NCBI RefSeq assembly: GCF_036507355.1
Contig: NZ_AP027877.1
Direction: 5' to 3' (one strand)
DNA length: 64,000 nt
Source: Escherichia coli
GTDB taxonomy: Bacteria > Pseudomonadota > Gammaproteobacteria > Enterobacterales > Enterobacteriaceae
The notes beneath the pieces are model-generated. The model made no database searches. It was not told the DNA's origin and saw nothing but the letters and a program-made list of their open reading frames with translations. The position numbers were made by a program, and so were the translations under genes. Shown here piece after piece: positions 3,503 to 3,781 of the stretch; the stretch's first letter is position 1; every line of letters starts with the position of its first letter.

Positions 3503-3781
3503 ATGAGCGGTAAGCGTTATCCCGAAGAGTTTAAAATTGAAGCAGTCAAACAGGTTGTTGATCGCGGTTATTCTGTTGCCAGCGTTGCAACACGTCTCGA
3601 TATCACCACCCACAGCCTTTACGCCTGGATAAAGAAGTACGGTCCGGATTCTTCCGCTAATAAAGAACAGTCAGATGCTCAGGCCGAGATCCGCCGTCTC
3701 CAGAAAGAGCTGAAGCGGGTTACCGACGAACGGGACATATTAAAAAAAGCCGCGGCGTACTTCGCAAAGCTGTCCGACTGA
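3503..3781 (+). CDS. IS3-family transposase OrfA (helix-turn-helix, leucine zipper)
   Basis: RBS agagagg then ATG at 3503; translation MSGKRYPEEFKIEAVKQV... typical of IS3 OrfA. Confidence 0.85.
   Translation: MSGKRYPEEFKIEAVKQVVDRGYSVASVATRLDITTHSLYAWIKKYGPDSSANKEQSDAQAEIRRLQKELKRVTDERDILKKAAAYFAKLSD
3742..3748 (+). other. programmed -1 ribosomal frameshift slippery site (A7) joining orfA and orfB
   Basis: AAAAAAA heptamer in the orfA/orfB overlap, as in IS3-family elements. Confidence 0.6.

Follow-up and report, generated by a model that had tools for sequence, protein, structure and literature searches.

An A7 heptamer followed by a conserved hairpin is very probably the programmed -1 frameshift site of an intact IS3-family insertion sequence in Escherichia coli

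Every heptamer has been measured in E. coli by Sharma et al. (2014; PMC4066793), and both lysine-codon heptamers were found to depend on the stimulators placed around them. A_AAA_AAA gave 0.405% frameshifting alone, 0.819% when the IS911 stimulators were present and 24.8% when followed by the IS3 pseudoknot; the values for A_AAA_AAG were 0.29% with no stimulator, 4.26% with the IS911 stimulators and 39.0% with the IS3 pseudoknot (PMC4066793). In each of the three phasings, E. coli genes strongly avoid A7, with z values of -15 to -28 (PMC4066793). The cassette of IS911 consists of A_AAA_AAG, an upstream Shine-Dalgarno-like GGAG and a downstream stem-loop (PMC4066793). IS600 makes up the single A_AAA_AAA gene cluster of E. 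coli (A_AAA_AAA_1), with a product of 100 aa in frame 0 and 385 aa after the frameshift, and is called a proven case of stimulation by a stem-loop on evidence cited there as unpublished data (PMC4066793).

The element described here occupies positions 3440 to 4668 of the window, by which we mean the whole 64-kb stretch of DNA that was analysed and which contains one copy of it. An earlier note, made from the sequence alone, had ascribed to it the standard IS3 mechanism for making an OrfAB transposase. The features of the element are as follows.

3440-4668, + strand: complete IS3-family insertion sequence of 1229 bp (probably ISEhe3 or a near-identical isoform), delimited by its inverted repeats and by alignment to sister copies
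3440-3477, + strand: left terminal inverted repeat, 38 nt, beginning 5'-TG and 76% complementary to 4631-4668
3455-3483, + strand: sigma-70-like promoter match at the left end, TTAACA-17-TAAGAT, a consensus match only, at 9 of 12 positions
3503-3781, + strand: orfA, 92 aa, with an HTH_Tnp_1 DNA-binding domain (Pfam, 79.5 bits) and the same start in the RefSeq sister copies
3742-3748, + strand: slippery heptamer AAAAAAA, A_AAA_AAA, in the X_XXY_YYZ phase relative to orfA; putative site of the -1 shift
3748-4650, + strand: orfB part of the fusion, frame 1 (open from 3664), with HTH_21, rve and rve_2
3749-3753, + strand: spacer GCCGC, 5 nt, between heptamer and hairpin; in the alignment G20, C21, G23 and C24 are invariant and C22 is nearly so
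3754-3789, + strand: predicted stimulatory hairpin, 11 bp in this copy with a 14-nt loop, from folding, covariation and RNAalifold
3833-3840, + strand: candidate pseudoknot partner GUCGGGUG for loop 3771-3778, complementary in this copy; comparative data are unsupportive
4171-4461, + strand: DD(35)E catalytic triad, D224 (4171-4173), D284 (4351-4353) and E320 (4459-4461), with spacings of 59 and 35 residues
4631-4668, + strand: right terminal inverted repeat, ending CA-3' and carrying the sole difference from the closest copies (4655 C)

Compared with IS3, the element has an identical spacer and a near-identical 5' arm: the IS3 sequence runs ZZZN-GCCGC-GACAUACUUCGCGAAG... (PMC4066793) and the window element AAAA-GCCGC-GGCGUACUUCGCAAAG. 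In both, the orfA UGA stands at the start of the 3' half of the structure. From the common spacer and the nearly equal 5' arm, we conclude that the window hairpin and the first IS3 stem are homologous. The two elements differ in that IS3 combines a tetramer/A_AAG site with an H-type pseudoknot, whereas the window element has a full heptamer and a pseudoknot without comparative support. The IS3 reporter-construct sequence (PMC4066793) is engineered; compared with E. coli genomes, it matched 21 records.

IS600, a member of the IS3 group, shares with the window element the heptamer A_AAA_AAA and a downstream stem-loop, but it is a distinct IS from another ISfinder group, and the two are likened here by description rather than by sequence alignment. 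With IS911 the window element shares an OrfA, a -1 fusion product OrfAB, a lysine-codon heptamer and a 3' structure. It differs from IS911 in having a simple hairpin and no conserved upstream Shine-Dalgarno-like stimulator, and its heptamer ends in A, a form approximately 5-fold less efficient than A6G when tested with the IS911 stimulators (0.82% vs 4.26%). The local sequence of IS911, ATATTAAAAAA(A/G)G, is very similar to that of the window site. A simple hairpin combined with A7 may give a low frameshift rate.

The sequence of 3735-3760 is ACATATTAAAAAAAGCCGCGGCGTAC, in which the A7 run occupies exactly 3742-3748. The orfA reading frame starts at ATG 3503 (alternative GTG 3497), is preceded by a GAGG Shine-Dalgarno sequence at 3494-3497, and ends at TGA 3779-3781. 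Its codons over the A-run are TTA AAA AAA GCC, which is the phasing of a canonical X_XXY_YYZ heptamer. Frame 1, the orfB frame, is open from 3664 to its stop at 4648-4650; the two frames overlap by 118 nt (3664-3781), and the A-run lies inside this overlap. The earlier note had placed AAAAAAA at 3742-3748 in an overlap of orfA (frame 2) and orfB (frame 1), with the -1 frame open from that point into the DDE domain, and these coordinates and frames are confirmed. A search for stop codons in the -1 frame between the A-run and the orfB catalytic domain found none: 302 stop-free codons follow a -1 slip, extending past D224, D284 and E320. A7 is the only in-phase XXXYYYZ heptamer in the 118-nt overlap. 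Since the + strand of the window contains 16 A6R heptamers, approximately 0.01 in-phase A6R would be expected by chance in an overlap of this length.

An A_AAG tetramer, a known weak -1 motif, is also present in phase at 3766-3769, within the hairpin loop. It is not conserved among the relatives of the element and has no properly spaced structure. At the level of transcription, three sigma-70-like sites were found in the region, where 1.4 are expected.

Joining 3503-3748 to 3748-4650 gives an OrfAB of 382 aa with the junction ILKK/SRGVLRK, the slash marking the change of frame. This product contains the Pfam domains HTH_Tnp_1, HTH_21, rve (115.4 bits) and rve_2. With the frames joined at the A-run, it aligns to the NCBIfam profile NF033516 (transpos_IS3) in one stretch covering profile positions 1-369 of 369, with a score of 437.7 bits against a cut-off of 160 bits. 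Elements of the IS3 family are about 1.0-1.75 kb long and have imperfect terminal inverted repeats, 5'-TG...CA-3' ends and target duplications of 3-4 bp. The 1229-bp element has the size, the TG...CA ends (TGAATCG...CGATTCA), the two overlapping frames, the full-length profile match and the HTH and DD(35)E domains of the family, and its sister copies are flanked by duplications.

Downstream of the heptamer, folding predicts a hairpin in which GGCGUACUUCG (3754-3764) pairs with UGAGGUACGCC (3779-3789), so that the orfA stop UGA at 3779-3781 lies within the 3' arm. Its calculated stability is -14.6 kcal/mol (z -2.58 vs shuffles), which ranks first among the 1194 segments of 36 nt in the IS. For Sharma et al. 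(2014), a stimulator begins 4-10 nt after the motif, is closed by a G-C pair and has an unfolding free energy of at least 7.6 kcal/mol (PMC4066793); the hairpin agrees on all three counts, starting 5 nt downstream with a G-C closing pair and a dG of -14.6. Longer folds are unremarkable, with z values of -0.63 for 3749-3830 and -0.14 for 3720-3900. The earlier note had proposed folding 3749-3830 to look for a stem-loop or pseudoknot. A conserved local hairpin is indeed present there, 5 nt downstream of the heptamer, while the stretch as a whole is no more stable than expected.

Conservation was analyzed using related elements. One scan of representative genomes yielded 80 related loci, whose matches are 53-99% identical, 74 of which were examined for heptamer phase, and 42 distinct cassettes from many genera were placed in an ungapped alignment (A1). 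Over these 42 relatives, 95.7% of the cells in the hairpin stem are paired, compared with 33-57% when the partner strand is slid. RNAalifold recovered the helix without prior input, with a core in which 3755-3764 pairs with 3779-3788. Four stem pairs are altered on both sides, through the exchanges C-G/U-A, G-C/A-U (8 sequences) and C-G/U-A, and three of the ten pairs are invariant. Certain of these exchanges are non-synonymous in both frames, with A replaced by V in OrfA and by T in OrfB, which argues for selection on the base pairing as such. Conserved protein motifs are also encoded in both arms (AAYFAK in orfA and RYAFI in orfB); thus part of the stem conservation could be at the protein level.

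We asked whether the site has stimulators other than this hairpin. The loop at 3771-3778 is complementary to 3833-3840, which would correspond to an IS3-like pseudoknot. Across the 42 relatives, 61% of the cells in this helix are paired vs 58% in shuffles, and close relatives carry uncompensated changes; the pseudoknot is not supported. A search for helices between the loop and downstream sequence over 200 nt in the same relatives found no 5-bp helix common to more than 38% of the sequences. Within 6-17 nt upstream of the motif, no Shine-Dalgarno-like stimulator of the IS911 type is conserved among relatives. The sole candidate, GGGA at 3732-3735, is weak. Its columns, which are variable or constrained by coding, show GGGA, GCGA, GAGA or GTGA in relatives and encode a conserved ERD. 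Scanning the IS against Rfam gave no family match, only one chance score (cow-rumen-1, 16.6 bits vs a gathering threshold of 53.4). A more elaborate reading is that the hairpin is stem 1 of an IS3-like pseudoknot specific to the enterobacterial clade (3771-3778 with 3833-3840), that A7 and A6G reflect a level of transposase tuned to the host, and possibly that a small amount of transcriptional slippage occurs on A7; we regard this combination as unlikely.

Among the 74 loci examined, 59 have A7 or A6G (A_AAA_AAA or A_AAA_AAG) in the phase seen in the window. In these 59 the orfA stop lies exactly 12 codons past the heptamer, and the -1 frame typically has about 302 codons without a stop. Their hosts span Enterobacterales, Alteromonadales, Acinetobacter, Pseudomonas and beta-proteobacteria, and their OrfA proteins are 53-100% identical. 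The slip-site variant tracks host lineage: A7 is carried by Enterobacterales, Alteromonadales and other marine gammaproteobacteria, and A6G by Acinetobacter, Pseudomonas, Aeromonas and beta-proteobacteria. Three loci of Pseudomonas wayambapalatensis have A_AAG_AAG, which is not a canonical heptamer, in place of A_AAA_AAG. In four enterobacterial loci that look decayed (L010, L019, L020 and L029), small deletions affect the A-run or the run is A6.

The distribution of A7 and A6G bears on whether the frame is changed during translation or during transcription. RNA polymerase could stutter on the A7/T7 tract and produce A8 mRNAs, from which OrfAB would be made by standard translation; one added A changes the frame in the same way as a -1 slip. 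Homopolymeric A tracts are prone to slippage, and this route is used by some IS families (PMC5009743; Baranov 2005, cited in PMC4066793). However, about half of the relatives have A6G, which is a shorter homopolymer and yet a perfect ribosomal heptamer in the same phase, and the site is followed by a conserved, covarying hairpin whose 5-nt distance is typical of stimulators that act on the ribosome. To our knowledge, IS elements known for transcriptional realignment have longer runs. In E. coli reporters, the output of A_AAA_AAA increases from 0.4% to 24.8% with the IS3 pseudoknot downstream (PMC4066793). We read this dependence on the pseudoknot as the behavior expected of a translational event. 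Given that the A6G relatives keep both heptamer and hairpin and that the output of A7 reporters depends on the stimulator, we consider transcriptional slippage to be an improbable source of the fusion.

Transposase could also be made without any fusion, with OrfB initiating at an internal start and the A-run being incidental. A 270-aa ORF does begin at GTG 3838, and an ATT codon in the orfB frame lies just before the A-run, at 3739. This ATT resembles the AUU start reportedly used for OrfB of IS911. Neither codon is conserved, however; the corresponding alignment columns, 10-12 and 109-111, vary freely, which disfavors independent initiation of OrfB. A protein starting at 3838 would also lack HTH_Tnp_1 and the region in which the match to the IS3 profile continues across the junction. 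Moreover, the heptamer and its phase are kept across classes of Proteobacteria. We therefore hold an internal start to be very improbable as the origin of the transposase.

That the two frames result from a recent frameshift mutation in a once-continuous transposase gene can practically be discounted: four relatives are clearly decayed near the site and the window copy lacks a target duplication, but dozens of divergent elements share the same layout, with the stop exactly 12 codons on and an open stretch of about 302 codons, and the IS occurs in up to 21 places per E. coli genome, with sister copies that have fresh 3-bp duplications.

Taken together, the phasing of the heptamer, the continuous profile match (1-369 of 369), the hairpin and the RefSeq annotation described below bear out the earlier attribution to the standard IS3 mechanism. 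The A-run is very probably where ribosomes undergo a programmed -1 frameshift on the mRNA of an intact IS of the IS3 family and IS51 group, apparently ISEhe3. That ribosomes shift here, and at what rate, we infer from other members of the family; no experiments on frameshifting of this element were found in the literature searched. In the proposed mechanism, most ribosomes would read orfA to the UGA at 3779-3781 and produce the 92-aa helix-turn-helix protein. A minority would be held up by the hairpin at 3754-3789, positioned at the mRNA entrance 5 nt downstream, while lysyl-tRNAs occupy AAA AAA (3743-3748). Both tRNAs would then slip back by one base to pair with AAA AAA at 3742-3747, and translation would continue from AGC CGC in the orfB frame, giving the 382-aa OrfAB transposase with HTH, HTH_21 and DD(35)E. 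The frequency of slipping would set the ratio of OrfA to transposase and would thereby limit transposition. The A7 site is a textbook example of the programmed -1 frameshift signal of IS3-family elements, in a widespread, known IS. It is already known, and it leaves knowledge of frameshifting unchanged.

The DNA of the IS is 99.9% identical to full-length copies on E. coli chromosomes and plasmids. Of 5426 complete genomes, 2303 had matches and 178 had full-length copies. The IS is also widespread among plasmids from Klebsiella, Enterobacter, Citrobacter, Salmonella and Pantoea. For the 99.9%-identical copies, RefSeq has one two-piece CDS, WP_089518920.1, with the note 'programmed frameshift' and coordinates equivalent to 3503-4650 of the window. 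For annotation, this means that orfA and orfB are one transposase gene with a programmed frameshift, rather than two genes or a pseudogene.

ISEhe3 was first described on the pPATH plasmid of Pantoea agglomerans. ISfinder, in which the reference for ISEhe3 is AF327445, assigns elements to the same IS at 95% nucleotide identity or more. Over 1229 bp, the window element is 98.9% identical to an IS3-family element of equal length at 97275-98503 of plasmid pT5282-Ct2. In the publication describing this plasmid, ISEhe3 insertions are reported (PMC6872532), and the element at 97275-98503 adjoins tra genes, matching their description. The name ISEhe3 is therefore probable but indirect, as it comes through the pT5282-Ct2 element, labelled ISEhe3 by its authors, and not through the ISfinder reference. 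ISEhe3 is listed in the IS3 family, IS51 group, with direct repeats of 3-4 bp (PMC10425158). The 3-bp target duplications of the sister copies fit this length; the window copy differs in having no target duplication and is one base away from the commonest E. coli copies.

That base is at position 4655 in the right inverted repeat, where the window has C and not T; among 21 relatives, 18 have T and two have C (L015 and L029). Direct repeats of 3 bp (CCG, GGT and others) flank six sister copies. The flanks of the window copy read GGG-IS-TAA, with boundaries at 3439/3440 and 4668/4669. On the left are a yfcV-like major fimbrial subunit gene and the first ~85 nt of an usher gene; on the right, a minor subunit gene is represented by its last ~100 nt, with the StfH/YfcO adhesin gene beyond it. 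The two flank points are 3709 bp apart in E. coli Combat11I9, suggesting that the IS marks a deletion of approximately 3.7 kb in the yfc chaperone-usher fimbrial operon, which would account for the missing target duplication. Relative to Combat11I9, the IS replaces nearly the whole usher gene and 2-3 subunit genes. It could have arisen as an IS-mediated adjacent deletion, or two IS copies could have recombined with each other. The description of the element as intact thus stands for the 1229-bp IS itself, which is complete and one base off copies with 3-bp duplications, while this copy sits at a deletion junction. It is reasonable to consider the element potentially active.

A second insertion sequence is found 309 bp downstream. 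This copy of ISApl1, at approximately 4977-6061 with its transposase ORF at 5042/5069-6043, interrupts the StfH/YfcO adhesin gene. E. coli copies with the annotation ISApl1 match it at 99.9% identity, and its score against NCBIfam transpos_IS30 is 309 bits. ISApl1 is an IS30-family element known for mobilising mcr-1. No mcr-1 follows it here; the next genes are the rest of yfcO, smrB, prmB, aroC and mepA. The ~3.7-kb replacement at the IS3-family element and the nearby ISApl1 point to IS-driven decay of the yfc fimbrial operon.

A 9-nt string, AATGCCTGG, is present at 3430-3438 and again at 4682-4690, 1 nt before the left end of the IS3-family element and 13 nt after its right end. This repeat is probably due to chance; it could also reflect similar fimbrial-gene motifs (..NAW..) at the end points of the deletion. 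The yfcV-like gene (2711-3273) appears to be frameshifted. Its ORF runs from 2711 in frame 2 to 3229, and a typical fimbrial C-terminus (...FEANTTFQITYL, stop at 3271-3273) is encoded in frame 1; the best E. coli matches to the region have 1001 nt per 1000 nt of query. It is probably a pseudogene in an already disrupted operon.
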